Shown here piece after piece: positions 5,078 to 57,873 of a DNA stretch of 64,000 nucleotides (position 1 is the first letter of the stretch; every line of letters starts with the position of its first letter). The position numbers and the translations under genes were made by a program. The notes beneath the pieces were generated by a model, which saw only the letters and a list, made by a program, of their open reading frames with translations, was not told where the DNA came from and made no database searches. This DNA is from Patescibacteria group bacterium UBA4787. GTDB taxonomy: Bacteria; Patescibacteriota; Patescibacteriia; UBA2591; UBA4787. The stretch covers positions 155,670 to 219,669 of the forward strand of contig DHGX01000004.1 in assembly GCA_002402995.1 (NCBI GenBank), read 5' to 3'.

Positions 5078-6376
5078 TTAGGTTTTATCGCCCCACATTG
5101 AATCCTGTCTAACTAAAAGATTCTTAGCGCGTTGCGGTTCGGCCATTATTGCTTGCACAATTTTTTCCATTCTCGCGCCTTGTGAACCCTTAACCAATAT
5201 TATATCTCCTTTTTTAATATTGTTTTTCAAAAATTCAATCGCCTCTGATTGTTGCTCAAAAGATAAAGTCTTTTTTAAATTTTCTTTATTTTTTTGGGCA
5301 CCCTCGGCAATTTCTTTGGCTAATTTGCCAACCGTAATCAAAAGATCTATATCATTAATAAATTCAGACTTGCCGACATTTAGATGGTATTCTGCGCTAT
5401 TCCTTCCTAATTCCAACATATCGCCTAGAACAGCGATTCTCCTAGCCTGAGGCGATTTTTCAATTTCTAACAAATTACTAAGCGCCGCTTCTGTTGCTGT
5501 GGGAGAAGCATTATAAGTATCATCAATAACCAAACTTTGATTGATCCCCGCGATAGGATTCATTCTTCCTTTGACTGCCGCGCATTTACCGCAAGATTCA
5601 GAAATTTCGATAAGATTCAAATCAAAGATAACACCGACTGCGACCGCCGCAAGAACGGCGTAAACCTGTGAACGCGAAATTATTTTAGGCAGAAAAATTG
5701 GAACCACACTGCCATGATGCTGTATTTTCATTCGTATACCATTAATTTTTGTTGTATCATCTTCTATCCGTTGGTCCAATTCGTATTCCATTATCCTAAC
5801 ATCCGCTCTTTCCGAAAAACCAAAACTTATAATCTTAACCTTAATGTGTTCTTTCATGCCCCAGGCCAAATCATCGTCGGCATTAAGAACTGCCCAACCA
5901 GATAACGGCAAAGAAGCAACTAATAATTGTTTTTCTCTAACAATATTTTCTATTGAACCAAAAAATTCTAAATGCGTGGGGGCAATAGCGGTTATAACAC
6001 CGATTTCCGGCTGAACAATGGTGTGCAAATATTTCATATCGCCCGAACGATCCACGCCCATTTCTAAAACTAGAATTTTTGGATAAGAAATTTCTCGAAA
6101 AATTAAACCACCCCAAGCCATCCAGAAAACTCTTAGCCAGCCGGCCAAAGATTTGCCCGGCGACAAACGTCCTAAAATGGTTAGAGGCACGCCTAATTCA
6201 TTGTTATAATTTTTAATCGTCCGCCTAACCTCGAAGTAATCTTTTAAAATCGCGTATATCATTTCTTTGCTTGAAGATTTACCGATGCTTCCCGTAATGC
6301 CAATAACTCTTGGGTGATATTTCTTTATAAATTTTTGGGCTAAATTTTTTAGCCAGAAACGTATTAATTTTTTCAT
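5078..6376 (-). CDS. murF: Mur ligase, most likely UDP-MurNAc-tripeptide--D-Ala-D-Ala ligase MurF
   Basis: GITGSIGKSS P-loop of Mur ligases; position in dcw cluster. Confidence 0.7.
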   Translation of the reverse strand: MKKLIRFWLKNLAQKFIKKYHPRVIGITGSIGKSSSKEMIYAILKDYFEVRRTIKNYNNELGVPLTILGRLSPGKSLAGWLRVFWMAWGGLIFREISYPKILVLEMGVDRSGDMKYLHTIVQPEIGVITAIAPTHLEFFGSIENIVREKQLLVASLPLSGWAVLNADDDLAWGMKEHIKVKIISFGFSERADVRIMEYELDQRIEDDTTKINGIRMKIQHHGSVVPIFLPKIISRSQVYAVLAAVAVGVIFDLNLIEISESCGKCAAVKGRMNPIAGINQSLVIDDTYNASPTATEAALSNLLEIEKSPQARRIAVLGDMLELGRNSAEYHLNVGKSEFINDIDLLITVGKLAKEIAEGAQKNKENLKKTLSFEQQSEAIEFLKNNIKKGDIILVKGSQGARMEKIVQAIMAEPQRAKNLLVRQDSMWGDKT

Positions 6377-21771: not shown

Positions 21772-22821
21772 TTACCAGTTAACCAATTTCTTGATTAGCC
21801 AAAAAAATGTAGCAAAAAAATAATTTGCCAATTTTAAGCCGGGCGGGTTTTTTAATCCTTCAAAATCTATTCTGCCGGTCATATACTTTAAGACATCCCT
21901 ATCGCCTATCCTCCTAGATCTTTGAATAGCTGTCCTGGTTTTTAAAATCTTCGGCAACATTAAAACAACTATAAAATAAGATTTTATCTTATCAAAAATC
22001 CATCCGTTTATCGCGGCATAAAAAATAATCCCCAATTCCATTATTAAGAGCGGAAAAAATAATAAGCACAAAGTTCGTAAACGGTAAAATTCCAATAAAA
22101 CAATCAGCCTGTTCCGCTCCATTAAATAAAATTTCTTTCTGGATTTATTAAAAGTATATTTATGATAAATATAAGTGTTCGGCGCAACCGCCAAACTATA
22201 GCCCAAAAGTCTCGCCCGCCAAGACCAATCAATATCCTCGTGATACATAAATAATTTCTCGTCCATTAAACCAATATCCTTAATCGCTTTTACCCGCAAA
22301 AACATTGCTGCTCCCGAGGGATAAGCGATTTCTTTTATTTTATCTACCCTAAAGTCGTTAATATTTTTATGATAATCGCCGGAAACTCCGAAACCGAGAA
22401 AATGAAGAAAATTGCCGCCGGTTTGGATTAAATCTTGTTCGGGCCAACACAAAATAATCGGTTGGCCGGCAGCGACATTTTTATTTTGTTCTAAAGCGGT
22501 TACCAAATTATTAATGGTGGCATTTTCGCAGATTGTGTCTTGATTCAGCAGAAATAGATAATCATAGCCGCCCTTTGTCGCCTCTGCCATTCCCTGGTTG
22601 GCTGCTTTGGCAAAGCCCAAATTCTTTTGATTCTTGATTATTTTAAATTCCGGAAAGGTCTGGCTTAAAAAAAACAAACTTTGATCAGCGGAATTATTAT
22701 CAATTATTAATATTTCGTTCTGTACTTCTGGAGATAACTTTTGATTTTTAAGACTATACAAACAATCCGGCAAATAAGCTACGCCGTTATAATTCAAGAT
22801 CACGGTTAAAACCTTGGTCAT
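21772..22821 (-). CDS. Glycosyltransferase family 2
   Basis: ILNYNG, DNNSAD, YHEDIDWSWR motifs. Confidence 0.8.
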   Translation of the reverse strand: MTKVLTVILNYNGVAYLPDCLYSLKNQKLSPEVQNEILIIDNNSADQSLFFLSQTFPEFKIIKNQKNLGFAKAANQGMAEATKGGYDYLFLLNQDTICENATINNLVTALEQNKNVAAGQPIILCWPEQDLIQTGGNFLHFLGFGVSGDYHKNINDFRVDKIKEIAYPSGAAMFLRVKAIKDIGLMDEKLFMYHEDIDWSWRARLLGYSLAVAPNTYIYHKYTFNKSRKKFYLMERNRLIVLLEFYRLRTLCLLFFPLLIMELGIIFYAAINGWIFDKIKSYFIVVLMLPKILKTRTAIQRSRRIGDRDVLKYMTGRIDFEGLKNPPGLKLANYFFATFFWLIKKLVNW

Positions 22822-23399
22822 TATTTTATAATTTTACCCATATCTCCTGCTTCAACGCCGGCGGCGTTTCCTTCGTCGGTATCAAGCTGAAAAGATAATC
22901 TATATTTATCATTAACTCTAACTAAAACATTTTTAAAAATTAATCCGCGAGGACCGTCGGTTTCGATTTTTATCAATTCCCCGTCCTTAATTCCCAATTC
23001 TTCTGCTTCACGAGGAGAAACATGAAGATGGCGCCACGCTAAAATAACGCCCTTATTCAACATAATTGAGCCCTGCGGGCCAACAACCTCTACACCAGGC
23101 GTGCCAGCCAGCTCTAACTCTTCGGAATCGTGATAAGTCGCCGGAATGCCCAATAAACGAGCCTCTGTTTTTGATAATTCGATTTGGGTGAGAGACCTGA
23201 CCGGCCCCAAAATCCTTACATTTTTAAGTTCGGCTTTGTCTGTTTTTAAGTCAACGGTTTCTTCGGCCGCAAATTGTCCTGGCTGAGAAAGCTCCTTCGA
23301 AATTTGTAATTTATAATTTTCACCAAAAAGCTTATCCAAATCTTCTTGGGATAGATGAATATGTCTGGCGGATATTTCAATAGGAATATCTTTAATCAT
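22821..23399 (-). CDS. pduL: PduL-type phosphotransacylase (phosphate acetyl/propanoyltransferase)
   Basis: Two PduL repeats with SARHIHLS and AWRHLHVS motifs. Confidence 0.6.
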   Translation of the reverse strand: MIKDIPIEISARHIHLSQEDLDKLFGENYKLQISKELSQPGQFAAEETVDLKTDKAELKNVRILGPVRSLTQIELSKTEARLLGIPATYHDSEELELAGTPGVEVVGPQGSIMLNKGVILAWRHLHVSPREAEELGIKDGELIKIETDGPRGLIFKNVLVRVNDKYRLSFQLDTDEGNAAGVEAGDMGKIIK

Positions 23400-26251
23400 C
23401 TTTGTTCGGCGCTAAATTTCTGTTTAAGTATTTCTATAACCTTATTCTGAATTCCGTTAATCTCTTTTTCTTCCAGGGTTTTTTTGTCCGAATTCAATTC
23501 TATGCTAAAAGCAAAGCTTTTTTTGTCGCCGAATTTTTCGTCTTGAAAAATATCAAATAATTTAACCTCTTTAATCAGAGGGCTCGCTTCTTTTATGGCA
23601 TTTTGTATTTCTTGCCAAAGAATGTCTTTCTTAAATAGAAAAGAAAAATCGCGGGATACTGATTGATACGGCGAAAGGGGTGAATAATTAATTTTGTCTT
23701 TCGCCAAACCGAGAAGCTCATCAAAATTAAGCTCAAAGGCATAAACAGGATTTTTTAGACGTTTGTTTTCCGGAATATTAGACAATAGGCCACAAACACC
23801 GATGGGTTGATCGTTAACCGAAATTATTGAACTGTCTTTGGAATCAAAATGTTCGGAAAGTAATTTATAGTAAACCCCCTCTTGCTCAACAAGTTTATTC
23901 AAAACTTCCGGAGTCAAAAAATTCCATTTAGAATTATTTATGCCCAATTCATTTAAAATTTGCTCTACTACGCCCTTAATAACCGCGAAGGGATTTTTAT
24001 GAGCTTCGTTGATTAAGCCGGAAATAACCTTGGGTTGTCGTACGCCTTGTCCAATCTTAAAAAACACGCGTCCTAATTCAAAAATTCTGAAATTCTCATA
24101 GTTATAGATATTTTTCTCGATGGCCGATTCAAGGCCAAACATCATATTGAACCGCAGTAAACCTATCTCTGCAGCTAATGGATTAAGCAACGGGATAACA
24201 TTTTTCCTAAGAGCCGAATTAATTTTTGAAGCTTGATCAATAAAACTGACGCTATAAATTTCGTCAAAACCCAACGCCGCTAACAAATTTTTGATTTTGT
24301 TGTTTAAAAATACTTCCGGAGAAAGAGTTAATGGAACAATGGCGCTGGTGGCCGGTTTAGATAATAAATTATCGAGGCCACAAATCTTAACAATTTCTTC
24401 GGCTAAATCTTCGTTAGTTTTCAAATCTACTCGAGATAAAGAGATGTCCGCGAGCCAGCCTGTTTCTGCGCTTAAAATACGGTGCGCGCCTCTAAATTCA
24501 GTTTCTTTAATAAATTTATTTAAATTTTCTATAACTACTTTTCTTTGCTTGCTGCTGGCGTGAAGAACTTTATTTTTTCCCCAGAATATACCTACATGCC
24601 CGACTCCATTTTTATGTTTTTCGTTGATGTGCGGTTTAAGGCCTCGAGTAAAAAGCAAATCCCCGATTTTTAATGTTTTTAAATTATCGATTATTTCTCC
24701 TTGTTCAATTTGCTCAATGGTTAACCGCGGCAATTCAATCCCCAATTGCCGATATAGATATCGCGCCAAACTCGAACAGTCAAATAATTTAGGCGCGTCT
24801 AGAAAAGTGCTGGCGCCGTATTGATAGGTTGCGCCAATTAATGATTTGCCAATACTTATAAGCCTTTTTCGCAAATCTACGCGTTGCAATTTAATGCCCA
24901 ATCTTTTAAGGAAATTAAGATAAGTCTTGTCCGGCAAATCACATCCGATTAAACGATTTAAATATTCAAAATCAGCCAATATATATTTTTTATTGGTTAA
25001 AATCGCCAGGCCCTCACGGCTTGTTAAGTCGCGAACTTCGCCCACCTTGCCCCCAACCATTTCTAAAATTAAATTTACCGCGCGCCACAATCCTTCTTCT
25101 GCCAAAACTATCGGCAAACCCTTTTCAAATCGCGTGGCCGCTTCTGTCCTTAAGGCCAATCGATGCGAGGTTTTCCTGATGGCAACAGGATTGAAGTTAG
25201 CTGATTCAATGACAATATTTTTTGTTTTTTCGTTAATGCCCGAACCCTCTCCTCCCATGATACCGGCCAAAGCCAATGATTTATTGGGATCAGCGATCAA
25301 TAAATCATTTTCTTCCAAACTTCTTTCTATGCCATCGAGTGTTTTCGTTTTTTCTCCGGTTTTAGCTTCCCGAATAATAATTTCGTGATTCTCTAATAGA
25401 TCATAATCAAAAGCATGCAATGGTTGGCCCAATTCTAATAAAATATAATTGGTAATATCAACAATATTATTAATCGGCCGTAAGCCCAATGCTCTTAATC
25501 GCCTCTGTAACCAAGACGGCGAAGGCTTGATTTTTATTCCCTCAATGGTTATTGCCATATACCGCGGGCACGAATTTTTGGCCTCAAGTCTGACATGAAG
25601 CGGCAGATTATTTTTACTCTTAATTTTTTTAAAGAGAATGTTCTTTATGAGCAAATTTTTAATAATAGATATTTCCTTGGCAACGCCGTAATGCGAAAAT
25701 AAATCTGGCCGATTAGCCAGGGGCTTGTTTTCTAAATCTAAAATCGCGTCTTCTAAACCTAATATTTCTGTTATTCTCTGGCCAATTTTCGCTTGTGAAT
25801 CCAAAATCATTATACCAGTATGATCGTCCCCTAAGCCGAGCTCGTCTTCAGCGCAAAGCATGCCTTCTGACTTTATACCGCGGATTATAGATTCTTTAAT
25901 TTCTAGCCCGCCAGATAATTTAGCGCCGATTAAGGCTAATGGAACTTTTTGGCCCACCTTTATATTCGACGCTCCGCACACAATATTAAGAATCTTTTCT
26001 TTTCGGTTTTCTACGGATTTAACTATGGCTATCTGCAAACGATCCGCGTTTGGGTGCGGCTTCACCTCCATGATTTGAGCGACTATCACTTGATCTAACC
26101 CCTGTCCTAATTTTTTGATTGATTCGACATTGCTAATATGCGATGTCAAAAATTCGGCCAATTCTTCCGGCTTTTCTTTTCCGCCCGAGACGAATCCGCC
26201 TTTGGCGGAAAAATTAACTAATTGTTTAAGCCAATTATAAGATAAATACAT
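23396..26251 (-). CDS. pheT: Phenylalanine--tRNA ligase beta subunit with an inserted NlpC/P60 (C40 peptidase) domain
   Basis: OB tRNA-binding N-terminus, B3/4, B5, core and FDX-ACB regions; insert has DCSSLARYLYRQLGIELPR and GHVGIF...VLHAS motifs; 951 aa versus about 800 typical. Confidence 0.8.
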   Translation of the reverse strand: MYLSYNWLKQLVNFSAKGGFVSGGKEKPEELAEFLTSHISNVESIKKLGQGLDQVIVAQIMEVKPHPNADRLQIAIVKSVENRKEKILNIVCGASNIKVGQKVPLALIGAKLSGGLEIKESIIRGIKSEGMLCAEDELGLGDDHTGIMILDSQAKIGQRITEILGLEDAILDLENKPLANRPDLFSHYGVAKEISIIKNLLIKNILFKKIKSKNNLPLHVRLEAKNSCPRYMAITIEGIKIKPSPSWLQRRLRALGLRPINNIVDITNYILLELGQPLHAFDYDLLENHEIIIREAKTGEKTKTLDGIERSLEENDLLIADPNKSLALAGIMGGEGSGINEKTKNIVIESANFNPVAIRKTSHRLALRTEAATRFEKGLPIVLAEEGLWRAVNLILEMVGGKVGEVRDLTSREGLAILTNKKYILADFEYLNRLIGCDLPDKTYLNFLKRLGIKLQRVDLRKRLISIGKSLIGATYQYGASTFLDAPKLFDCSSLARYLYRQLGIELPRLTIEQIEQGEIIDNLKTLKIGDLLFTRGLKPHINEKHKNGVGHVGIFWGKNKVLHASSKQRKVVIENLNKFIKETEFRGAHRILSAETGWLADISLSRVDLKTNEDLAEEIVKICGLDNLLSKPATSAIVPLTLSPEVFLNNKIKNLLAALGFDEIYSVSFIDQASKINSALRKNVIPLLNPLAAEIGLLRFNMMFGLESAIEKNIYNYENFRIFELGRVFFKIGQGVRQPKVISGLINEAHKNPFAVIKGVVEQILNELGINNSKWNFLTPEVLNKLVEQEGVYYKLLSEHFDSKDSSIISVNDQPIGVCGLLSNIPENKRLKNPVYAFELNFDELLGLAKDKINYSPLSPYQSVSRDFSFLFKKDILWQEIQNAIKEASPLIKEVKLFDIFQDEKFGDKKSFAFSIELNSDKKTLEEKEINGIQNKVIEILKQKFSAEQR

Positions 26252-26267: not shown

Positions 26268-28628
26268 CTATCTTACGGTAACCATAGCCTTAACTATATC
26301 CTTCTTCTCTGGATTATTTAATGAAGTGAAAGTAATAGGAATTTCTAAAGTATATGGTTCGTTATCCAATAATCTAGTTAGGGTTACCTCTAATCTTATT
26401 TCTTTGTCTAATCCGCTACTTAAGGTTCCAGTGAGCCAGCCCTCGTTAATTACCGCATTAGTAATATCGTTGCCACCCTCTAAAACATTATAATAGCGTA
26501 TCTCCCATGGATCATTTCCTGCTGGTCCGCTGATAATAAATTGGTCCGGATCGCTGCCATCATTCTGAGCCCTAAGATTAAAAGAAATTTTTTCGCCGGC
26601 ATGAATATTCTGTTTTTTAGTCTGTCCCTCGCCGTCAAGATTATAAATAGTGTCGCCCAAATAATCTAAATCGTTTGGATTTTTAATTTGTCCGTCCGGC
26701 TGATATTTAATTTCTCGGTTTAAGGTTTTTTTTAAATCTTTAAGTTTATCGCTAAAAAAATACCAAATCAATAAACCGATAATCAATAATCCAAATACGA
26801 TATAAATTAGAACCATTAAAATAGCGGTTTGCGACTTTAGGACAACGTTATAAATTAAAGATTTTCCATTTGTAATATATAGGTCTTGGGATTTAAAGGT
26901 TTTATAATCCTTCTCTTCGACGAACAAACGATAAACACCTGGCTTTACCATGAATGGTTGATATTCTCCGTTGCTATTAGTAATAGTTGAGGCAGCGACC
27001 AAAGAGCATTTGTTATTTGAACAATCCATTAAATCAACCTTGACGTTGGCCAATCTGTTTTTTGTTTTTTGGCTATACACATAACCGACGGGGCCAACCA
27101 GAAATTTGTCTTCTTCAAATATTTTTCCATTGCCCATCGTTTTAAGAGTATAAACTCCTGTTTTATCCAAAGATTCTGGTGGGAGAACAAATAAAACATA
27201 TCCGGCTTCGTTGCTACGATAAATAAATTCTGTTTCTTCGTCGTCGGGATTAACTAAAACATAATGAATCGCTTGATCGGGAATAATTTCCTTAAGCGCG
27301 TTTACTGTTGGTCCGGTAATTATTTTATGTCCTGGGATTGAACCGTTTAATAATATTTCTGTTTGGCCAATTTCGGCGCCATCCCATAAACCATCCTCGT
27401 CTGTATCCTTTTTACGCGGATCTGTATTCTGCTGATATTCGCCGAGATTAACCAGACCATCACCGTCCGGATCTAACATCGCGTCATTGGGATCTCTTGG
27501 GTTAAGCTTATTCTTTCTTTCCCAAAGATCCGGTATCTTGTCTTGATCCGCGTCTATATCACAAATCACGCGCCCCTTAACAATATCAATTAAGCCCGGC
27601 CCCTGAATCGAACTGATAATTAATAAAAATTCTTGCAAATCTTGATTGTTGGCATTTTCCGGCAAACTAATTATGGCTGATAGATTTTTAGAATTGTCTG
27701 GTTTTAGCTTCAACGAATATTGACCTTCTATAATTTGCTTAGTAATATCCTTGCCACCATCAAGATATTTTATAATCCAGGTTTTATCGGCCAAAGCTCC
27801 GCCGCGAACGACAAAATCATTAATCTTGTCGCCGCTATTGATTATTTGAAAATTAAACGTTGTGCTGTCGCCAGGATTAACCATAACGGTTTTTACTTGC
27901 GTAATCTGTGAATCATCCGTCTCAAAGATATTTTTACCCACCCAAACAGTATCTCCGCTGAGCTTAATTATAGCATCTGGTTGACTGCCATTTTTATTAG
28001 CGTTAGAAATAACATTAATGCTTTCCTCTCCGGGAACGTCGCCCGGTTGAGCGCCGCGAGCTTCTTCTGATTGAATGTCAGGGGCATTAGACGCTTGGAC
28101 GGTAAGATATATTTTAGCCGCGTCTGAACGAGCAGGATCGTTAAGCGAAGAACACCTGATAACAAAAACTTTTTCCGCGCCGTAAGAAAGCGGACTAATG
28201 GGCGTAATCCGAATTTGTATCTCGCGAGCCGCGCTAGGCGTTAAGGGCGCGGAAATCCATCCGCTACTGACCACTTGCGCCGTAATATCTTGATTGGCGG
28301 CCTCATCAAAATATTTAATATTCCAACGATCGCTACTCCCGTCACCTACGAGTTTTATTTTGTCAACCGTGGAACCGCGATTAACCACAGCCGCGGTGTA
28401 TAATATGGGATTATAATTATTGACGGTTTGATATAAAATCTCTTCGTTGCCTGTCAAACTGTAAACTTGCGCGCCCCCCCAAACCGCGGAGGAATAATAT
28501 TTGATTAAAAGATCGGGTGAATAAGCGTCTTGAGCTTTTGCCGGCGTAATAGAAAAAATCGAAAAACATATAATACATAAAACCGCCCAATAGCTTATTT
28601 TTTGGCAGCGAATATTGTTAATCGTCAT
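26268..28628 (-). CDS. Large secreted / membrane-anchored surface protein with thrombospondin type-3-like Ca-binding repeats and a carboxypeptidase-regulatory-like beta domain
   Basis: Signal peptide; D-x-D-x-D-G repeats (DPDGDGLVN, DTDEDGLWDG); TM helix near residue 600; duplicated beta-rich domains. Confidence 0.4.
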   Translation of the reverse strand: MTINNIRCQKISYWAVLCIICFSIFSITPAKAQDAYSPDLLIKYYSSAVWGGAQVYSLTGNEEILYQTVNNYNPILYTAAVVNRGSTVDKIKLVGDGSSDRWNIKYFDEAANQDITAQVVSSGWISAPLTPSAAREIQIRITPISPLSYGAEKVFVIRCSSLNDPARSDAAKIYLTVQASNAPDIQSEEARGAQPGDVPGEESINVISNANKNGSQPDAIIKLSGDTVWVGKNIFETDDSQITQVKTVMVNPGDSTTFNFQIINSGDKINDFVVRGGALADKTWIIKYLDGGKDITKQIIEGQYSLKLKPDNSKNLSAIISLPENANNQDLQEFLLIISSIQGPGLIDIVKGRVICDIDADQDKIPDLWERKNKLNPRDPNDAMLDPDGDGLVNLGEYQQNTDPRKKDTDEDGLWDGAEIGQTEILLNGSIPGHKIITGPTVNALKEIIPDQAIHYVLVNPDDEETEFIYRSNEAGYVLFVLPPESLDKTGVYTLKTMGNGKIFEEDKFLVGPVGYVYSQKTKNRLANVKVDLMDCSNNKCSLVAASTITNSNGEYQPFMVKPGVYRLFVEEKDYKTFKSQDLYITNGKSLIYNVVLKSQTAILMVLIYIVFGLLIIGLLIWYFFSDKLKDLKKTLNREIKYQPDGQIKNPNDLDYLGDTIYNLDGEGQTKKQNIHAGEKISFNLRAQNDGSDPDQFIISGPAGNDPWEIRYYNVLEGGNDITNAVINEGWLTGTLSSGLDKEIRLEVTLTRLLDNEPYTLEIPITFTSLNNPEKKDIVKAMVTVR

Positions 28629-28670: not shown

Positions 28671-29720
28671 TTAAAATTGTCTGATAAATTTTAAATTCTG
28701 GTTATGAAAATGCCTGATGTCTTCTATCTTATATTTCAACATCACTAGGCGATCGAACCCAAAACCAAAAGCTAATCCCGTATATTTCCCTTTCGGATAA
28801 CCGGCATATTCTAAGACCTTGGGATGAATCATGCCGCAACCCAACAACTCTACCCAGCCACTATTCTTGCAAACCTGACATCCGCGGCCGCCGCAGCTTA
28901 AGCAGCTGAAATCAACTTCATAACTGGGCTCAGTAAAAGGAAAATAACTGGGACGCAGTCTAATATTAACCTGTTGACCGAATAAAGTATTTAAAAATTC
29001 TTTTAAAATAAAAACTAAGTTCGCAATGCTGATATTTTCATCAACCATAAAGCCATCAATTTGGTAGAGAATGTAGCCATGACTGACATCGGTTGCTTCG
29101 TGGCGAAAACATTTCCCGATAACGCAAGTTTTAATCGGTGGTTTTTGGTGTTCCATTGTTTTAATCTGCATGGCCGTAGTGTGCGTTCTTAAAAGCAAAT
29201 CCTTGCCCTTTTCGTCTAAAAGTTTTTTGCCTTTCTCATCGCCTAAATAAAAAGTGTCCCACATATCACGAGCAGGGTGATCAACCGGAATATTTAAAGA
29301 TTCGAAATTATAATAATCATTTACTACCTCCTCGCCTTCAACCACATTGAATCCCATTGATAAGAAGATATCTGCCACTTTTCTGGCAATTTGCGTATGG
29401 GGATGCAAATGGCCGATATATTGTTTCTCGCCGGGAATTGTCGGATCAAAAAAATATTGATCGCCCGATCTTTTGTTGCCCATTTTTCTAATCGCTCCAT
29501 CAAGGGAAAGAGTAAGCCAGTTTTTAATTTCATTGGCCATGGGTCCGACTTTTTTCTTTTCTTCTTCTGATAAATTTTTAAGGTTGCGCAAAACTTGAGT
29601 CAACAAACCATTTTGTCGGCCCAAATATTTTATTTTAATGGCTTCTAGCGCGCCATGGTCTTTGGCTACTCCCAGTTCTTGTTCGACTGATTGTTTAATA
29701 TTTTGCAAATCTAAATCCAT
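28671..29720 (-). CDS. pheS: Phenylalanine--tRNA ligase alpha subunit
   Basis: Class II motifs (FRHEATDVSHGY...; GFGFDRLVML). Confidence 0.85.
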   Translation of the reverse strand: MDLDLQNIKQSVEQELGVAKDHGALEAIKIKYLGRQNGLLTQVLRNLKNLSEEEKKKVGPMANEIKNWLTLSLDGAIRKMGNKRSGDQYFFDPTIPGEKQYIGHLHPHTQIARKVADIFLSMGFNVVEGEEVVNDYYNFESLNIPVDHPARDMWDTFYLGDEKGKKLLDEKGKDLLLRTHTTAMQIKTMEHQKPPIKTCVIGKCFRHEATDVSHGYILYQIDGFMVDENISIANLVFILKEFLNTLFGQQVNIRLRPSYFPFTEPSYEVDFSCLSCGGRGCQVCKNSGWVELLGCGMIHPKVLEYAGYPKGKYTGLAFGFGFDRLVMLKYKIEDIRHFHNQNLKFIRQF

Positions 29721-43797: not shown

Positions 43798-43870
43798 AGC
43801 CAGCGGTCGGAATCGAACCGACGACCTTCGCTTTACGAAAGCGCTGCTCTACCAACTGAGCTACGCTGGC
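43798..43870 (-). tRNA. tRNA-Thr (anticodon CGU by manual fold)
   Basis: Cloverleaf GCCAGCG...TTCGATT...CGCTGGC; anticodon loop TTCGTAA. Confidence 0.7.
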
Positions 43871-43880
43871 GCCCCTTAAA

Positions 43881-43951
43881 AGCGGGGTACGAGAATCGAA
43901 CTCGCATCTCGTCCTTGGGAAGGATGCATAATACCACTATACTAACCCCGC
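43881..43951 (-). tRNA. tRNA-Gly (anticodon CCC by manual fold)
   Basis: Acceptor GCGGGGT/ACCCCGC, T-arm GCGAG-TTCGATT-CTCGT, anticodon loop TTCCCAA; D-arm is weak. Confidence 0.55.
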
Positions 43952-44003
43952 CTTATTGAAAGAAAATACTAACCTAATTATAGTATAATATTTTTTAGAA
44001 AAA

Positions 44004-45389
44004 TTAAAGCTTTTCTTTCTTCTCGTCCTTTTTATCCGGAACTACTATTAAGCTTTGCGGTTTGGGGGTTTCTTGTTTGACAACGAGAGTTTCTGCCAGA
44101 TTAGACTGGCCATCCTCTTGTTTGTCTGTCGCCTTGATTGTTTGTTTATTTAATTTTTGACTGGCCCTTTTGTCTGCTTTTTCTTTAAGAATTTTTTCTT
44201 TTTCTTTTTCTTCTGTTCTTTTACGACGATGTTCTACGGAAAGCCAATGCTTAGTGGTCTCCTCGATATCATCAAGCTGTTTTGAGAATTTAGTTTTCTG
44301 CCAAAACATCAATCGATCGACCAATAAAATTCCGCTCAGATGGTCTATCTCATGCTGAATAGCTCTTGCCAAAAAATGATCGGCTTTTATTTTAATTTTT
44401 TGTCCGTCTTCTAATTGATAATATTCTAATTCAATGGCCCTAAATCTGGAAATTTTTATATTTAGCCCCGGCAAGCTCAAACACCCCTCTTCCATTCTTT
44501 CGCGTTGCCAACTTGTTTTTAATATTTTAGGATTGATTAAAACCATTGGCCCGTCGCCAATATCTAAAACAATTAATTTTAACAAGATGCCAACTTGGTT
44601 AGCCGCCAGACCACAACCATTATTTTTATACATGGTATAAAGCATATTTTTTGCCAACTTGCGAATGTCGTCATTAATTTCCTTGATCAACTTTGCTTTA
44701 TCGCGCAATATCGGATCGCCATATTTTCTAACGACTAATTGTTCCGTCGGTTCATCGCTTAAGGATGGCTCACATAAAGGCAAAAAACTCTTGGTTGACT
44801 CTGCCATTTGATTTTTTTCAATTTGTTTAAGTGGCGGGTATAAATTCAAAAGCGCGGCCCCGGCCAAACCATATAGTACACCAATAACGATAAATAGATT
44901 GTAAAAATCGAAATAACTAGCAATCAAACCTCCCACCGCGGCCGCAAGCGCCTGGCCGACTTCAACTATCGTGGAATGAAAGGCAATTTGCGAGGCTTGC
45001 TTCCGAACATCCAAATGTTTCACAAAAATAGCATACCAAGTAGGGTATTGAATGGCCGCGCCAAAACCATAAATCACTTCAACAATATAAATCTGCCATG
45101 GATATCGACTAACCAAATAGCCCGCCGTAGCGATCACCGACAGAAAGGCGCCAAATAAAAACCATCTCAAATTTCGCCGATCGCTAGGTTCTGTATCAAG
45201 ATAATCAGCAATAAAAATTTGCGCGATAGCCTTAACCCCAAAGTAAATTGCTTCGGCCACGCCGATAACTAACAAGGTGCCGCCAATAATATTTTGGTTA
45301 ACGAAAATGGCGAAAATCGGCATTATTAAACCATAACCGAACCAATTGAAAAAATCCGCGAAGATAAGGGTTTTGACAATCTTGTTCAT
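44004..45389 (-). CDS. def: Fusion of an MFS-like 6-TM half with a C-terminal peptide deformylase and a K/E-rich tail
   Basis: N-terminal ~200 aa hydrophobic; then GCGLAANQ, EGCLS, HEIDH PDF motifs in a single continuous ORF. Confidence 0.6.
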   Translation of the reverse strand: MNKIVKTLIFADFFNWFGYGLIMPIFAIFVNQNIIGGTLLVIGVAEAIYFGVKAIAQIFIADYLDTEPSDRRNLRWFLFGAFLSVIATAGYLVSRYPWQIYIVEVIYGFGAAIQYPTWYAIFVKHLDVRKQASQIAFHSTIVEVGQALAAAVGGLIASYFDFYNLFIVIGVLYGLAGAALLNLYPPLKQIEKNQMAESTKSFLPLCEPSLSDEPTEQLVVRKYGDPILRDKAKLIKEINDDIRKLAKNMLYTMYKNNGCGLAANQVGILLKLIVLDIGDGPMVLINPKILKTSWQRERMEEGCLSLPGLNIKISRFRAIELEYYQLEDGQKIKIKADHFLARAIQHEIDHLSGILLVDRLMFWQKTKFSKQLDDIEETTKHWLSVEHRRKRTEEKEKEKILKEKADKRASQKLNKQTIKATDKQEDGQSNLAETLVVKQETPKPQSLIVVPDKKDEKKEKL

Positions 45390-45486
45390 ATAAATTATTA
45401 CTGATTCGTCTTATTTTAATCTATTTGCGGCTAATTGTCAAAAATCGCTGGAATATGCTAAAATAAAGTGTGTTAACCCCTATATT

Positions 45487-46080
45487 ATGAAAAAGAAAAT
45501 GTCTATAAAATTCATTGTATGGTTTTTGGTCTTAACGAGCCTTTTGTTTATTAACAATAAACAATCCTTAGGACAAAACCAAGCAACAAATAAAGAAATA
45601 AATATTTATTTTTTTTGGATGGACGATTGTCCTTATTGCGCCAAAGCAAAAGAATTCCTGCCAAAACTTGAAAGCAAATATCCCAATATCAAAATTAAGG
45701 CGTTTGAAATATCTTCCCATAATGATAATTTAAAAGTGATGCAAATTATGGAAGCGGCCTATGGCGCTACTTCCCGCGGTGTTCCCGAATTTTTTATCGG
45801 CGCGAAATATCATCAAGGATTTGAGAGTGAAAAAACCGACGGCCTAACGATCGAACAGATGATACAAAAGTGTCTTGCTAAAACTTGCCCCGACCCATCA
45901 GACGAAACGATTAATTATGTTAATAAATTAAATCAACAAAATAAATTCGCCGGCCCCTATCTGATAGGATTAATTTTATTGGTTATTTTGATAATTCTAA
46001 TCGGGATAATTTCGACTATCATAAAAAATAAAAAGAATAAACAGACTGATGATTCTGAAAAATTAGATCAAACCAAATAA
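45487..46080 (+). CDS. Secreted, C-terminally anchored thioredoxin-fold oxidoreductase (CPYC active site)
   Basis: Signal peptide, WMDDCPYCAKA, C-terminal TM. Confidence 0.55.
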   Translation: MKKKMSIKFIVWFLVLTSLLFINNKQSLGQNQATNKEINIYFFWMDDCPYCAKAKEFLPKLESKYPNIKIKAFEISSHNDNLKVMQIMEAAYGATSRGVPEFFIGAKYHQGFESEKTDGLTIEQMIQKCLAKTCPDPSDETINYVNKLNQQNKFAGPYLIGLILLVILIILIGIISTIIKNKKNKQTDDSEKLDQTK

Positions 46081-46109
46081 GAGGCATTAACCCCATATTT
46101 TATTATAGA

Positions 46110-46773
46110 CTAGGCTAACTTAAAATTATTTATTACCAAACCGAATTTATATCCTAAATATTCGGCTGCTTTTCGACAATAGACCATTCGCTCGGTAAAA
46201 ATTTCAAAATATTCTATAATGGGAATAATTTTTGTTTCTAATTTGATAGTCAAGGTAATGATCTTTTTTGTTTTATCGATTTTCAACTTGGTTTCCGTAA
46301 CAGCGAAATTAACACGATCATGAATATCATTATTTAAACATTTTATATTTTCTTTCCTAACCCTTGAACGATGAACGTCTGATTTATCCGCGATAACCAG
46401 AATAGAAGCTACGCTGCTGTTTAATTTCATTTCTTCTTTGTCGTGATTGGCGATCGCCTGGCAAATAATAGCCAGCTCTTCCGGCGTCATTCTATTCTGA
46501 AATATCTGGTGAAACAAAAGAGCGCCCCAATAATGATGCTGTAATCTGCCTAAAAAATTTCCCATATCATGACAGAAGCCGGCAATAGCCACCAATTCCT
46601 GCTCTTCTTTGGTCAAATCCATTTCTTTGGCGATATTTCTGGCTCGATCGCTAACTAAATTAATGTGACGAAAACCGTGCTCGTTATATTCCAGTGCCTT
46701 TAAGGTGCTCTCTGACTGGTTAATAAATTCTAGAACTTGTGGGTTATTTTTTATTTCAGAAAATGCAATCATA
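46110..46773 (-). CDS. HD-domain protein
   Basis: AGFCHDMGN motif. Start placed at MIAFSEIK; the ORF-track N-terminal extension reads through a tRNA-like fragment. Confidence 0.55.
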
Positions 46774-46800
46774 TATTTTAAATAAGTTATTAATAATATT

Positions 46801-46862
46801 TGGTAGCGCATAGGAGAATCGAACTCCTGTTTGGTGGTTGACCCAGTATAACAATTTATATA
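46801..46862 (-). other. tRNA-like 3' fragment (T-arm + acceptor 3' strand + CCA) with no matching 5' half
   Basis: rc reads ...CAGGAGTTCGATTCTCCTATGCGCTACCA; no complementary 5' acceptor found nearby. Confidence 0.4.
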
Positions 46863-46934
46863 TACCGCCACAGGGAATCGGACCCTGATTACATGGCTGA
46901 GAACCATGCGTCCTAACCATTAGACGATGGCGGC
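46863..46934 (-). tRNA. tRNA-Glu (anticodon CUC by manual fold)
   Basis: GCCGCCA...GTCT-AATGGTTA-GGAC, CATGG-TTCTCAG-CCATG, CAGGG-TCCGATT-CCCTG, TGGCGGT. Confidence 0.6.
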
Positions 46935-46936
46935 CA

Positions 46937-47035
46937 AAACCTATAAATTGTATACGGGGCAAGGAACCGCCCCTGGCCCGTAGTGAAACGAAGTTTCTAC
47001 CACTGGGCCGTCCTAGTTCACCCCGCTAAATAATT
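46937..47035. repeat. GC-rich multi-hairpin element (family D-like) downstream of tRNA-Glu
   Basis: Hairpins GGGGC..GCCCC and GGCCCG..TGGGCC; shares TACGGGGCA(A)GG and CGTCCT.GTTCAC with the in-frame insert in the ELP3-like gene. Confidence 0.4.
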
Positions 47036-47192
47036 TTGTAGTAAAACTGTACAAATAATATCGCATAAAATTTAACGGGGCAAGCTAAACGAACGCGCCA
47101 TAAATTTGGCGAGATAAATCATAGATGATAGGACCGAAATTAATATCAATTATTGTATCATTTTAGAGCCAAACAAGCAATATATTTTTCCG

Positions 47193-47226
47193 TTCAAAAA
47201 GAGAGGCAAAATTACCTCTCTTTTGT
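47193..47226. terminator. Bidirectional terminator downstream of groEL
   Basis: GAGAGG-caaaatta-CCTCTC with flanking runs. Confidence 0.65.
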
Positions 47227-47279
47227 GTAATATGTAATTTTCTCGCCTCGATTCTCGTTGGCGAAGCGGGTTTCAATGA

Positions 47280-49260
<1,981 letters not shown>

Positions 49261-49310
49261 AATTTTTATAAATTATCTCGCCTCGCTGTAAATTTGGCGA
49301 AACGGATTAG

Positions 49311-49337
49311 TTAGCACCCTGAACATTCAAGTGCTAA
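49311..49337. promoter_or_regulatory. CIRCE (HrcA operator) upstream of groES
   Basis: TTAGCACCC-N9-AAGTGCTAA versus consensus TTAGCACTC-N9-GAGTGCTAA. Confidence 0.75.
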
Positions 49338-49404
49338 TTATAACAACTGTGGATAACTAGCGCAAGAACGAATTTTCCACAGGAAGCAATTTTCCACAAC
49401 AATA

Positions 49405-49432
49405 TTGACAAGCTTGTTGTGGAGTATATAAT
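49405..49432 (+). promoter_or_regulatory. Sigma70 promoter (TTGACA-16-TATAAT) overlapped by the 9-bp inverted repeat CCACAACAA-N11-TTGTTGTGG
   Basis: Consensus hexamers ~30 nt upstream of secG; palindrome at 49392-49420 brackets the -35. Confidence 0.55.
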
Positions 49433-49459
49433 ACTAATCTAACGATATTTTTATTATCT

Positions 49460-49681
49460 ATGTTTGAATATTTAGATATTATCCAAGTTGTCATCTCTGT
49501 CCTGTTGGTTGTAGGGATTTTATTGCAAAACCGCGGTAGCGGACTTTCTTCAGCGTTTGGCGGTAGCGGAGAATTCTTCCAAACAAAGCGCGGCATTGAA
49601 AAAGGAATCTTTATTGCTACTATAGTTTTAGCTGTTATTTTTCTGGGGCTAGGCCTCCTGCGCCTAATTTTGGCGCGTTAA
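49460..49681 (+). CDS. secG: Preprotein translocase subunit SecG
   Basis: Two-TM 73-aa protein with Gly-rich loop typical of SecG. Confidence 0.7.
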   Translation: MFEYLDIIQVVISVLLVVGILLQNRGSGLSSAFGGSGEFFQTKRGIEKGIFIATIVLAVIFLGLGLLRLILAR

Positions 49682-49736
49682 AAACCGGCTAGATTGAACA
49701 CATAATTTAGAATTTTATATATTTTTCATTAAGTGA

Positions 49737-51554: not shown

Positions 51555-51563
51555 TGTTAATTC

Positions 51564-51647
51564 GGGCGAGTGGCGGAACTGGTAGACGCGCTAGCTTCAG
51601 GAGCTAGCAGGAGTAATCCTGTGGAGGTTCGAGTCCTCTCTCGCCCA
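51564..51647 (+). tRNA. tRNA-Leu (anticodon CAG)
   Basis: Class II tRNA with long variable arm; anticodon loop TTCAGGA. Confidence 0.8.
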
Positions 51648-51675
51648 CTTAAAAAATTATTTAAATGTAATTCAA

Positions 51676-53373: not shown

Positions 53374-53384
53374 AATAAAAAAAT

Positions 53385-54383
53385 ATGAAAAGATTAATAA
53401 GCGGCGTCCAACCAACAGGCGGAATACATATCGGCAATTATCTAGGCGCCATTAAAAACTGGGTGAAATTACAAGAAAAATACGAGTCGTTTTTTTTTAT
53501 CGCCGACTATCACGCTTTAACCGTTAAACAAGACCTTGAAACTTTTCCTGAAAAAATTCTTAACACCGCCATTAATATTATAGCTTGCGGAATTAATCCC
53601 GACAAATCTCCTTTATTTGTTCAATCCCATATTTTAGAACATGTAAACTTGGGATGGATTTTTAATACAATTACGCCCATAGGAGAATTAAATCGCATGA
53701 CTCAGTATAAAGATAAATCAAAACAGTATTCGGAAAATATTAATGTCGGTCTTTTCACCTATCCAACCTTAATGGCTGCCGACATACTCATTTATAACGC
53801 AGACGTGGTGCCGGTTGGCGAAGACCAATTTCAACATTTAGAATTAACCAGAACAATTGCCCGTAAATTCAATTCTGTTTATAAGTCTGGTTTCTTTAAG
53901 GAACCCGAAGCTATTGCCGCAGCCGGAGCGCGGATTATGAGCTTAACCGATCCGTCAAAAAAAATGAGCAAATCTGGCGGCGTTAACGGCTATATCGCCT
54001 TAACCGACAGCGAAGAAGTTATTTGGCAAAAAGTTTCTAAAGCCGTAACAGATCCGAATCGCCAGAGAAAAACCGATAAAGGCAATCCTCAAAAATGTAA
54101 TCTTTTCTCTTTGCACCAACTATTCTCTTCTCTCGAAGAAATAGAATATGTTGATAAGGGCTGTCGTAACGCCGGCATCGGCTGCCTGGAATGCAAAAAA
54201 ATATTAGCCGACAATATCAACGAAGAAATCGCGCCGATTCGCGAAAAAATTTCCTATTGGCAAAAACCCGAAAACAAAAAAAAGATTATTGAGATACTAA
54301 AACAAGGCGCGGATCGCGTACGGCCGATTGCCCAAGAAAACCTAAAAAAAATAAAACAGATTGTCGGACTTATAGAAATGTAA
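53385..54383 (+). CDS. trpS: Tryptophan--tRNA ligase
   Basis: SGVQPTGGIHIGNYLGA (HIGH region) and KMSKS. Confidence 0.9.
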   Translation: MKRLISGVQPTGGIHIGNYLGAIKNWVKLQEKYESFFFIADYHALTVKQDLETFPEKILNTAINIIACGINPDKSPLFVQSHILEHVNLGWIFNTITPIGELNRMTQYKDKSKQYSENINVGLFTYPTLMAADILIYNADVVPVGEDQFQHLELTRTIARKFNSVYKSGFFKEPEAIAAAGARIMSLTDPSKKMSKSGGVNGYIALTDSEEVIWQKVSKAVTDPNRQRKTDKGNPQKCNLFSLHQLFSSLEEIEYVDKGCRNAGIGCLECKKILADNINEEIAPIREKISYWQKPENKKKIIEILKQGADRVRPIAQENLKKIKQIVGLIEM

Positions 54384-54408
54384 TTTTTTTACACACAAAT
54401 ATATAAAA

Positions 54409-54437
54409 ATCGCCCTTTAAACGGGGTGATTTTTTTA
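54409..54437. terminator. Terminator between convergent trpS and the 637-aa gene
   Basis: ATCGCCC-tttaaac-GGGGTGAT plus TTTTTTT. Confidence 0.55.
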
Positions 54438-54456
54438 TACGAGAATCTATGTAAGG

Positions 54457-56370: not shown

Positions 56371-56431
56371 ATAAATATTATTTCTTTTTTTCCGTTACCT
56401 CTATATTGTTTAATCTTTGTAGTTTCTTTAT

Positions 56432-56516
56432 ACTTGCTTCGCTTCGTGAAATCGGCTCGCTACGGAATCAGACAAAAATTCTTTTTGCCTGTTCCTCCGC
56501 TCAACAATTATAAAGG
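56432..56516 (-). repeat. Repeat family B, partial inverted copy (lacks the GC hairpin)
   Basis: rc ~85% identical to the 39051-39105 core plus right flank. Confidence 0.5.
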
Positions 56517-56530
56517 GCATTAACCCTGTG

Positions 56531-57769: not shown

Positions 57770-57873
57770 AATGTATTTATTATACTCGCTACGCTCGTAA
57801 AATTGGTTCGCCCCGCTTCGCCGGAGCTCTCGCCACGCTAACGCGTTGGCGTAGCGGGTTAGCGAGGCGAGTC

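Follow-up and report, generated by a model that had tools for sequence, protein, structure and literature searches.

The window analysed here is the whole 64,000-nucleotide stretch of contig DHGX01000004.1 (Patescibacteria group bacterium UBA4787); all of the window features described below lie on the minus strand. A continuous open reading frame of 951 amino acids (23396..26251) was identified by TIGR00472 and Pfam as pheT, encoding the beta subunit of phenylalanyl-tRNA synthetase (PheRS) with a nested NlpC/P60 domain. The protein scored 667 bits against the equivalog model TIGR00472 (pheT_bact; cutoff 402.65), in two stretches parted by the insert. The Pfam domains tRNA_bind, B3_4, B5, tRNA_synthFbeta and FDX-ACB were all found, and the order B1/B2-B3/4-B5-B6/7-B8 is complete. 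The B2/tRNA_bind domain occupies aa 55-158 (25778..26089; PF01588, E 3.3e-14), and the B3/4 editing domain, with its canonical editing residues kept, aa 228-400 (25052..25570; PF03483, E 3e-67). The B6/B7 catalytic-like module spans aa 638-843 (23723..24340; PF17759, E 7.7e-27) and the B8/FDX-ACB anticodon-binding domain aa 860-951 (23399..23674; PF03147, E 2.5e-24). The alpha (catalytic) subunit is encoded by a 349-aa pheS gene (28671..29720; PF01409 E 8.6e-94, PF02912, TIGR00468), which scored 312 bits against TIGR00468 (cutoff 237) and carries the motifs FPFTEPS and GLAFGFGFDR. A single 786-aa gene separates pheS from pheT, and neither a leader nor a T-box turned up near the two genes when the window was scanned for tRNAs and Rfam families. 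Apart from the insert, the host protein is a normal cytoplasmic PheRS beta subunit.

The B5 domain is present in two halves. The N-terminal half (about aa 420-455; 24887..24994; PF03484 and alignment to 3pco_B) ends in the beta-strand that precedes the insert. The C-terminal half (about aa 597-640; 24332..24463), aligned to 3pco_B from Ec442, carries the acidic motif R-x-D...EDLAEEI, in which R, D, E and E are invariant in the homologue alignment. Since query residues 455 and 597 align to Ec437 and Ec442 of E. coli PheT (3pco_B), the insert comprises the 141 residues aa 456-596 (24464..24886) and displaces about 4 residues; the alignments, PF00877 and an AlphaFold2 (AF2) model identify it as a complete NlpC/P60 (C40) papain-like domain. 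The insertion site is the tip of the B5 beta-hairpin. The sequence quoted in the preliminary description was located within the 951-aa reading frame. That description had placed the domain after B5, a position that has to be corrected: the domain is nested inside B5, whose Pfam match is split (aa 426-455 match profile positions 3-32 of 67) and which continues downstream of the insert. PheT sequence does resume past the insert, as had been described, with the E. coli alignment picking up at Ec442. The segment is missing from ordinary PheT, including the closest insert-free homologues from Patescibacteria.

The insert matched Pfam NLPC_P60 (PF00877) over aa 473-586 (24494-24835) with an E-value of 1.5e-16 and 60.7 bits, far over the cutoff of 23, covering profile positions 1-100 of 105. 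It also matched NlpC/P60 chains in the PDB by sequence (E 3.4e-13 to 1e-4). An AF2 model of B5 plus insert, built on a 28-sequence alignment, was confident (pLDDT 90.6, pTM 0.84, with pLDDT 92-97 over the NlpC/P60 domain); the full-length PheT modelled without an alignment gave only pLDDT 32.4. The model has strands at aa 454-459 and aa 597-603 and a helix at aa 613-624. In Foldseek, the insert matched solved NlpC/P60 structures (7cfl, 7v6s, 2k1g and 6b8c) with a target-normalised TM of 0.78-0.89 and a probability of 1.00; the values span 0.75-0.89 for the hits to 7cfl, MepS and Spr, and superposition on solved NlpC/P60 hydrolases gave 0.85-0.89. Across the Pfam, NCBIfam, PDB sequence and fold searches, the insert matched only families of the NlpC/P60 clan, and none of the known editing folds (B3/4, INS/YbaK, AlaX, DTD, CP1) was found in it.

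The predicted nucleophile, Cys492 of the FDCSS motif (codon 24776..24778), is invariant in all 43 insert-bearing PheTs compared, and in further alignments. The predicted catalytic His552 of the GHVG motif (24596..24598) is kept in 42 of the 43, with Y in the remaining one. At the position of the third triad residue, His564 of the LHAS motif (24560..24562), the majority of homologues also have His; seven carry N, D or Q there, and two a Y, which is non-canonical. With the profile match, the confident fold and all three triad residues intact, the NlpC/P60 assignment made in the preliminary description stands. Judged from its sequence and model, the insert is a complete and apparently active NlpC/P60 cysteine hydrolase.

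The same architecture recurs in related genomes. The identical 951-aa protein is encoded on 8 contigs from independent samples, and the same insertion site was found in 16 of the 120 top PheT homologues and in 30 of the 150 best cluster representatives (50% identity; exhaustive HMMER search, used because a word-indexed search with the insert as sole query gave just 4 proteins). A search of genome loci, with a 6-sequence alignment as the query, found it in 40 of 80 loci from species-representative genomes, and thus in at least 40 species-level Patescibacteria genomes. The GC content over the insert (0.36-0.38) is the same as that of its flanks. Host and insert distances are correlated (r = 0.60; 0 of 2000 permutations as high). 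An intein or mobile insertion was ruled out by the NlpC/P60 rather than Hint fold, the matching GC content and the co-divergence of insert and host; an assembly chimera was ruled out by the identical protein on 8 contigs and the same co-divergence. That the locus could be an artefact or a mobile element of any kind (a chimera, a fusion of genes by frameshift, or a selfish insert resembling an intein) is suggested by its unusual architecture and by nothing more; the reading frame is continuous, the fold is confidently assigned and the same junctions are seen in more than 40 species, which makes the probability of such an origin negligible. The insertion took place long ago, and the domain was then inherited with pheT in Patescibacteria of Parcubacteria/Paceibacteria type. 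We regard it as very probable that the insert is genuine, of ancient origin and maintained by selection.

The mean pairwise identity of the insert (40%) is higher than that of the B5 flanks (36%), B8 (35%) and B6/7 (29%), and its dN/dS is 0.15 (0.15-0.21; flanks, 0.09-0.10). The insert is under purifying selection, with its Cys-His(-His) centre kept intact. A structural, docking or regulatory module, engaged in partner binding or ligand sensing with no turnover, might tolerate the variation seen at the third triad position and the single Tyr at the catalytic His, and the high pTM suggests rigid packing on B5. However, NlpC/P60 enzymes can have N, D or Q as the third residue, and the near-invariance of the Cys and the catalytic His, the retention of the classical NlpC/P60 motifs and the dN/dS values all argue against a loss of catalysis. 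A non-catalytic role is therefore very unlikely.

The B3/4 editing site of the window PheT was compared with that of E. coli. The equivalents of R244, N254, H265, G318, E334, T354 and A356, which we take from the PheRS editing literature to be the B3/4 editing residues, are all conserved. Across 37 insert-bearing homologues, these residues are likewise kept, the only exceptions being T/S or A/S exchanges and two cases of E replaced by S. As the site is intact, the insert is not a substitute for lost editing in the window protein, and compensation for a degenerate B3/4 domain was rejected for the PheT forms as a whole. Given this conservation, insert-bearing PheTs have no obvious need of a second editing site.

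Relatives of the insert also occur outside PheT. The first group consists of "mini" proteins of about 200-240 aa (214 clusters), in which the NlpC/P60 domain lies between the N- and C-terminal halves of B5; some have a Pfam B5 match, and some are labelled PheT by NCBI. In a neighbour-joining tree of NlpC/P60 domains, the mini proteins fall within the clade of N-truncated PheTs. The deep nodes of this tree are unresolved and the Bacillaceae outgroup falls inside it, and we relied on it only for this placement, not for counting insertion events or naming a donor. In all 8 sampled loci, the mini gene adjoins a gene encoding a PheS core with FDX-ACB, in three cases co-directionally with a 4-nt overlap and in five divergently; the loci share the synteny GT2-PheRS-NlpC-gyrB-thrS and are not independent observations. 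The partner keeps the Phe-pocket motifs FPYTDPS and GWAFGFGLER, and scores below the curated cutoffs for pheS_mito (234-247 against 258) and SrmL (249-257 against 300). The B5 acidic residues, which are taken to be Mg-binding, are missing from most mini proteins, so the interface with the alpha subunit may not be preserved. The adjacency of the two genes can partly be explained by descent, as a pheT remnant left in place.

In a second family of B5-flanked NlpC/P60 proteins (~200 aa), Pfam missed the B5 in the flanks. Profile-profile comparison without the NlpC/P60 part detected it, the flanks matching insert-free PheT B5 across the junction (hhalign 94.6%, E 7e-8). One member lies in a DPANN archaeal gene context; archaea lack murein. 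The third group, family C, comprises stand-alone NlpC/P60 genes of 141-165 aa, in which the domain begins at residues 1-16. Eight of 23 family-C loci (seven found through the cluster map and one, L079, by tblastn) have the gene head-to-head with pheS, either canonical or PheS+FDX-ACB; the other 15 have no PheRS neighbour within 6 kb. A leader sequence is lacking in PheT, and likewise in the stand-alone (141-165 aa) and B5-flanked (~200 aa) relatives; in the leaderless PheT, with the domain at aa 456-596, export signals and cell-wall targeting are absent. The Bacillaceae relatives from the same scan do have signal peptides. In several loci (L028, L039, L067, L071, L088 and L089), the NlpC/P60 gene is followed by one for a leaderless Peptidase_C39_2-like protein. 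The NlpC/P60 module remains tied to PheRS genes even after the loss of most of the beta subunit.

These relatives bear on whether PheRS is more than a carrier. The domain could be a housekeeping amidase, a cytoplasmic peptidase for murein-derived or gamma-glutamyl peptides (recycling or scavenging) that became trapped in pheT, its linkage to PheRS genes being historical. The top sequence and fold matches are indeed DL-endopeptidases, MepS and other autolysins; the family-C genes indicate that the domain works without PheT, and a pheT decaying in place would leave a mini gene beside pheS. Patescibacteria are, moreover, scavengers with many odd fusions. Nevertheless, two stand-alone families still have recognisable B5 halves that the domain could do without, the archaeal gene context of one B5-flanked member points away from murein, and the adjacency to PheRS genes outlasts inversion, both divergent and co-directional forms being seen. 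Furthermore, the insert has persisted in an essential enzyme through deep divergence and is more conserved than much of PheT. We consider a trapped housekeeping amidase unlikely.

The reading that we prefer, though only tentatively when coupling and mechanism are taken jointly, is a cytoplasmic Cys-His hydrolase tethered to PheRS. We infer that the domain would be an active cysteine hydrolase acting in physical association with the synthetase. The B5 domain, which touches the catalytic core of the alpha subunit (bioRxiv 10.1101/067587), would serve as its anchor. Cys492, activated by His552 and His564, would attack the carbonyl group of an acyl compound that PheRS produces or binds. As the substrate we favour an aminoacyl ester or an adenylate, for example Phe-AMP or (mis)acylated tRNAPhe. 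Hydrolysis of the resulting thioester acyl-enzyme would add a second activity, proofreading or regulated deacylation, to that of B3/4. Functional coupling of the insert to PheRS is, in our view, somewhat probable, whereas an aminoacyl-ester substrate is possible but doubtful. Ester and thioester chemistry occurs within the NlpC/P60 superfamily, in the LRAT/PLAAT acyltransferases and in the CHAP amidase of glutathionylspermidine synthetase/amidase. As a counterpoint, the nearest relatives by sequence and structure are peptidoglycan endopeptidases (MepS/Spr, Acd24020, LytE, CwlO), with no known tRNA-editing fold among them.

The same superfamily membership of LRAT/PLAAT would also allow a transferase, in which a thioester forms between Cys492 and Phe (or a different acyl group) drawn from Phe-AMP or Phe-tRNA, and the group then moves on to the amine or hydroxyl of an acceptor, possibly with the help of the neighbouring cytoplasmic C39_2-like papain-fold protein. 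Activated Phe would thereby find a use outside the ribosome. Weak LRAT Pfam matches in some members, the C39_2-like genes behind the NlpC/P60 gene in several loci and the contact of B5 with the alpha catalytic core (bioRxiv 10.1101/067587) are consistent with such an activity. By profile and fold, however, the domain belongs to the hydrolytic P60-like branch, no conserved neighbour points to an acceptor or product, and no C39_2-like gene adjoins pheT in the window; acyl transfer is thus distinctly improbable. The tethering of the domain to its target and its retention after editing loss would equally fit an on-site detoxifier, an immunity-like hydrolase that destroys a PheRS inhibitor or toxic analogue (an aminoacyl-adenylate mimic or an N-acyl-Phe compound) on the enzyme. 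Peptidases that confer immunity to aminoacyl-nucleotide antibiotics provide precedents. This is pure analogy, though, as no toxin, transporter or biosynthetic genes were found at the loci examined, and presence in many free-sampled groundwater lineages favours a housekeeping role; we give a protective function very little credence.

Going further, the module might represent a new kind of synthetase-associated papain-type enzyme for quality control or acyl transfer, docked by a B5 scaffold onto the catalytic core of PheRS and hydrolysing or re-routing aminoacyl-tRNAPhe or the adenylate, with the mini protein as a trans-acting replacement in lineages where PheRS has shrunk to a mitochondria-like monomer and B3/4 is lost. 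We hold this extended proposal to be rather unlikely as a whole. If the module does act on aminoacyl-tRNA or adenylate, translational proofreading would gain both a fold and a chemistry new to it, the latter through a thioester intermediate, and the ability of some Patescibacteria to do without the B3/4 editing domain would be explained. Should the module act on peptides, an essential enzyme would be the carrier of an unrelated activity in genome-reduced symbionts. Whichever reading holds, the insert is a marker for a large clade of Patescibacteria. One catalytic module is found in three settings, inside PheT, in a B5-flanked mini protein beside a monomeric PheRS-like gene, and free and leaderless beside pheS, which makes a testable system.

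Few enzymes are as conserved as the aminoacyl-tRNA synthetases, whose additional domains have time and again proved to have editing or non-translational functions. We know of no synthetase with a nested papain-fold cysteine hydrolase. Our search of the literature found no description of NlpC/P60 in PheT, PheRS or any tRNA synthetase, nor of a bacterial monomeric PheRS-like enzyme (PheS+FDX-ACB), which the loci also bring to light. An NlpC/P60 domain nested in the B5 hairpin of PheRS beta is an undescribed arrangement, conserved across many Patescibacteria.

The window protein shares with canonical PheT (T. thermophilus, E. coli) the same domains in the same order, the editing residues, the acidic B5 motif and a separate PheS. 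It differs in having a 141-aa enzyme domain in place of the 4-residue B5 hairpin turn; in many homologues, the N-terminal B1/B2 tRNA_bind module is also missing. With the NlpC/P60 endopeptidases (E. coli MepS/Spr, C. difficile Acd24020, B. subtilis LytE/CwlO), the insert has in common PF00877, the fold, the Cys-His-His triad and the motifs G-x-P-Y-x-x-G, D-C-S, P-R-x-x-x-x-Q, G-D-L and G-H-V-G. Those cell-wall enzymes are secreted or are lipoproteins, with LysM or SH3b targeting domains, whereas the insert is without a leader and lies within an essential cytoplasmic enzyme. Similarly, the partner of the mini genes has the PheS-core and FDX-ACB architecture of mitochondrial-type monomeric PheRS (FARS2; TIGR00469), but it is bacterial (Patescibacteria) and is accompanied by a B5-flanked NlpC/P60 protein, which mitochondria lack.

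E. coli glutathionylspermidine synthetase/amidase combines a CHAP-type papain-fold amidase with a ligase, the amidase being turned off by cysteine oxidation. It is a like case, in that a cytoplasmic ATP-dependent ligase is joined to an amidase of the NlpC/P60 superfamily that can reverse the ligase product; it differs in that the ligase is an ATP-grasp enzyme rather than a class II synthetase and the fusion is terminal rather than nested. An equivalent action of the insert on the product of PheRS would be by analogy only. Finally, several synthetase editing domains have free-standing paralogues: ProRS INS and YbaK/ProX, AlaRS and AlaX, and PheRS B3/4 and CtdA (PMC12449066). The pattern seen here is the same, a hydrolase nested in a synthetase together with stand-alone forms, often near a synthetase gene. 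The insert differs from these in that its fold is unrelated to any known editing domain and its host polypeptide retains the canonical editing site.

The PheT (PheRS beta subunit) of the window is encoded by a 951-aa ORF at 23396-26251 on the minus strand, and contains a nested NlpC/P60 domain. Pfam analysis placed tRNA_bind at aa 55-158, B3_4 at aa 228-400, a partial B5 match at aa 426-455 (profile positions 3-32 of 67), NLPC_P60 at aa 473-586 (E 1.5e-16, 60.7 bits against a gathering score of 23), tRNA_synthFbeta at aa 638-843 and FDX-ACB (B8, anticodon-binding) at aa 860-951. The protein scored 667 bits on the NCBIfam pheT_bact equivalog (cutoff 402.65), matched in two stretches, and its middle part matched MepS-type and other NlpC/P60 models. 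The alignment to E. coli PheT (phmmer, PDB sequences) likewise comprised two blocks, with residue 455 corresponding to E. coli 437 and residue 597 to E. coli 442. The insert therefore spans aa 456-596 (window 24464-24886) and takes the place of approximately four residues of PheT. The span of 24480-24850 proposed in the preliminary description falls within these limits, and its NlpC/P60 assignment agrees with the Pfam score; its sole error was to place the domain after B5, when it is actually inside B5. The predicted catalytic residues are Cys492 (codon at window 24776-24778), His552 (24596-24598) and His564 (24560-24562), all on the minus strand. The GC content of the insert (0.36-0.38) was equal to that of the flanks.

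The genes around pheT were also noted. The pheT stop and the start of a gene for a PduL-type phosphate propanoyltransferase (22821-23399, minus strand; PF06130, E 4.7e-68) overlap by 4 nt, and this pairing was also present in the 86%-identical relative L093. Between pheS (the alpha subunit gene) and pheT lies a gene of 786 aa (26268-28628, minus strand) with CarboxypepD_reg as its sole Pfam match, a hydrophobic N-terminus and a hydrophobic stretch in mid-protein; the same gene occupies this position on the other contigs with this PheT. A tmRNA gene is present at 58821-59198 on the plus strand (93.8 bits), and seven tRNA genes (Thr, Gly, Glu, Leu, Asp, Arg, Ser) lie within 43798-61938. No tRNAPhe gene was found in the window, and no leader or T-box was found near pheS or pheT.

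An AlphaFold model of aa 400-645, built on an alignment of 28 sequences, was confident (pLDDT 90.6, pTM 0.84); the whole protein modelled from its single sequence gave no usable structure (pLDDT 32). The model runs from the B5 helices through a beta-strand (aa 454-459), a complete alpha+beta domain, and a second beta-strand (aa 597-603) to the last B5 helix, so that the NlpC/P60 domain is predicted to be an insertion at the tip of the B5 hairpin. The top PDB matches of the model (Foldseek) were exclusively NlpC/P60 hydrolases, with a target-normalised TM of 0.75-0.89, and included C. difficile Acd24020 (7cfl), E. coli MepS/Spr, Trichomonas NlpC, SagA, LytE and CwlO. The host PheT is cytoplasmic and otherwise canonical, and the insert occupies its B5 hairpin.

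The architecture, which the preliminary description had regarded as non-standard, is widespread and not an artefact. An identical PheT was found on eight contigs from separate samples, with constant neighbours. PF00877 was present in 16 of the 120 best PheT homologues (34-86% identity), among which the closest insert-free PheTs were annotated as Patescibacteria. Using only the insert as query, an exhaustive HMMER search returned 12,429 relatives; when these were clustered at 50% identity, PheTs with NlpC/P60 at the same place made up 30 of the 150 best representatives. Scanning one genome for each GTDB species gave 80 loci. The N- and C-terminal portions of PheT flank the NlpC/P60 match collinearly in 40 of them, and it was in frame in the three that were checked. 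The names of these 40 included Parcubacteria, Paceibacterota, Terry-, Lloyd-, Nomura- and Campbellbacteria. The insert-bearing PheT exists in two forms, one full length (~920-950 aa) and one N-truncated (~770-845 aa), without B1/B2. The architecture is already visible in the precomputed Pfam annotation, yet appears to be undescribed; full-text literature searches found no NlpC/P60 domain in PheRS.

Many Patescibacteria PheTs, of ~770-845 aa with the insert included, are entirely without B1/B2 (tRNA_bind; P0127-P0268, and the loci L002, L005 and L012, for example), and their alignment to the window PheT begins at approximately residue 165. Some homologues carry extra insertions within the NlpC/P60 domain itself (P0097, of 1049 aa, P0012, P0072, P0074 and P0114), comprising a basic low-complexity stretch of ~30 residues in P0097, and additions of 15-25 residues on both sides of the catalytic His in the P0012 group. 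Some proteins with three to nine tandem NlpC/P60 copies each (P0125, of 1183 aa, P0136, P0138, P0143 and others) also rank among the insert's closest relatives; P0125 had nine matched stretches (E 1.5e-57, HMMER with the insert as query).

The insertion point was identical in all 43 aligned sequences. The Cys was present in 43 of 43 and the GHVG His in 42 of 43; the third triad residue was mostly His, seven sequences having N, D or Q and two having Y. Relative to the 86%-identical L093, dN/dS was 0.15 for the insert, 0.21 for its Pfam core and 0.09-0.10 for the flanks. The mean pairwise identity across 34 full-length proteins was 40% for the insert, 36% for the B5 flanks, 29% for B6/7, 35% for B8 and 48% for B3_4. 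The insert and host identities were correlated (Pearson 0.60, reached by none of 2000 permutations), as expected under vertical co-inheritance. The insert is a genuine NlpC/P60 domain of old origin, structurally autonomous and under selection, and its catalytic dyad is intact. Separately, dS varied widely along pheT (window 23396-26251 versus L093 774-3584): it was ~1.9 over the initial 200 codons, 0.9 over B3/4 and 0.2-0.5 from B5 onwards, a hint of intragenic recombination between related lineages.

The equivalents of E. coli R244, N254, H265, G318, E334, T354 and A356, which form the PheRS editing site, were present in the window PheT when aligned to E. coli PheT, and the same seven were conserved across the insert-bearing PheTs. 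Compensation for a decayed B3/4 domain was therefore ruled out as the role of the insert in these proteins.

Related NlpC/P60 domains were also found as stand-alone proteins. The first type (family C) is leaderless and of 141-165 aa, with the domain starting at residue 1-16. A PheRS gene was a neighbour in 8 of 23 family C loci: clustering of neighbouring ORFs identified a PheS-type gene head-to-head with, or no more than two genes from, the family C gene in seven (L009, L014, L028, L038, L039, L067 and L071), and tblastn identified an insert-free PheT nearby in L079. In L014, L028, L038 and L071, the neighbour was a canonical pheS, with an insert-free pheT after it. These loci have wider synteny in common (recG, gatA, gatC, ligA), and are thus not independent. 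In L014 (Jorgensenbacteria), a HicB/HicA-like toxin-antitoxin pair (5329-5863; 99 and 83 aa), identified by eye, lies between pheS and the divergent NlpC/P60 gene.

The "PheS" of L009, L039, L064 and L067 (379-382 aa) comprises a class II core and a C-terminal FDX-ACB domain. Patescibacteria genes of this type, encoding 379-395 aa, were located in L064 (4796-5944), L067 (4543-5682), L086 (2856-4004), L087 (2821-3963), L089 (2829-4004) and L094 (2814-3962), with no pheT at these loci. The architecture is the same as that of the mitochondrial monomeric PheRS, and the pocket motifs of the window PheS, FP(F/Y)T(E/D)PS and G-x-A-F-G-x-G-x-(E/D)-R, are also present; the scores were slightly below the curated NCBIfam cutoffs of pheS_mito and "PheS-related mystery ligase SrmL". 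Literature searches found no description of a monomeric PheRS in Patescibacteria.

A gene of 220 aa in L064 (5941-6603) shares a 4-nt overlap with the PheS+FDX-ACB gene, and its product consists of the B5 N-half, NlpC/P60 and the B5 C-half. A profile search from four such mini proteins (~200-240 aa) returned 214 clusters, with names including Minisyncoccota, Parcubacteria, Wolfe- and Zambryskibacteria; some have precomputed B5 matches, and some are labelled "phenylalanyl-tRNA synthetase subunit beta" by NCBI. The mini gene adjoined a tRNA-synt_2d+FDX-ACB gene in all eight sampled loci, being co-directional with a 4-nt overlap in three (L064, L086, L089) and divergent at a distance of ~40 nt in five (L087, L088, L094-L096). 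In a rough neighbour-joining tree, the deep nodes of which are unreliable, the mini proteins were nested in the N-truncated PheT::NlpC clade, consistent with an origin by loss of the remaining PheT. The B5::NlpC/P60 unit persists as a protein of its own in lineages where the locus has a PheRS-like gene without a beta subunit. A recurring trio of PheRS, NlpC/P60 and a leaderless Peptidase_C39/C39_2-like papain-fold gene (~170-200 aa) was also noted, the last of these coming after the stand-alone or mini gene (L071 6435-6959; L088 4608-5219; L089 4747-5325; cluster c11 in L028, L039 and L067).

These loci could also be read as those of a purely hitch-hiking peptidoglycan-peptide amidase, with an incidental link to PheRS. 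In sequence and in fold alike, the insert is closest to murein endopeptidases; descent partly accounts for the mini-gene adjacency, and the sampled mini loci are syntenic; and the acidic B5 residues, which we take to be Mg-binding, are gone from most mini proteins. However, the adjacency persists through inversion, both orientations being seen, and one member of a second, more divergent type of ~200 aa (family B, e.g., P0121) comes from an archaeal context, which has no murein. The short flanks around its NlpC/P60 domain gave no Pfam match to B5; with NlpC/P60 removed, they matched the B5 of insert-free PheT collinearly across the junction (hhalign probability 94.6%, E 7e-8). P0121 (L081 6001-6606) is labelled Nanoarchaeota by NCBI, and its gene context is archaeal (an ATP-dependent DNA ligase, a RadA-like ATPase, an RNA polymerase subunit L-like gene and purine genes), which suggests that the module is common to Patescibacteria and DPANN archaea. 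Two stand-alone families retain the B5 halves, though NlpC/P60 can exist without them, and B5 contacts the alpha catalytic core of PheRS (bioRxiv 10.1101/067587). On these grounds, we favour a PheRS-linked role over the hitch-hiking amidase, and infer that the enzyme acts in the cytoplasm, in association with PheRS.

For such a PheRS-linked role, the favoured chemistry would be an attack by Cys492 on the carbonyl of an aminoacyl ester or adenylate, with a thioester intermediate forming on Cys492 and then being hydrolysed. The outcome would be an additional proofreading or regulated-deacylation activity. PheT::NlpC/P60 is a synthetase with an idiosyncratic inserted enzyme domain, and could become categorically new if the aminoacyl-ester hypothesis is true. 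LRAT/PLAAT enzymes carry out ester and thioester chemistry within the NlpC/P60 superfamily, placing such reactions within its reach. Glutathionylspermidine synthetase/amidase offers the nearest known mechanistic analogy: its papain-fold amidase hydrolyses the product of the ligase to which it is fused.
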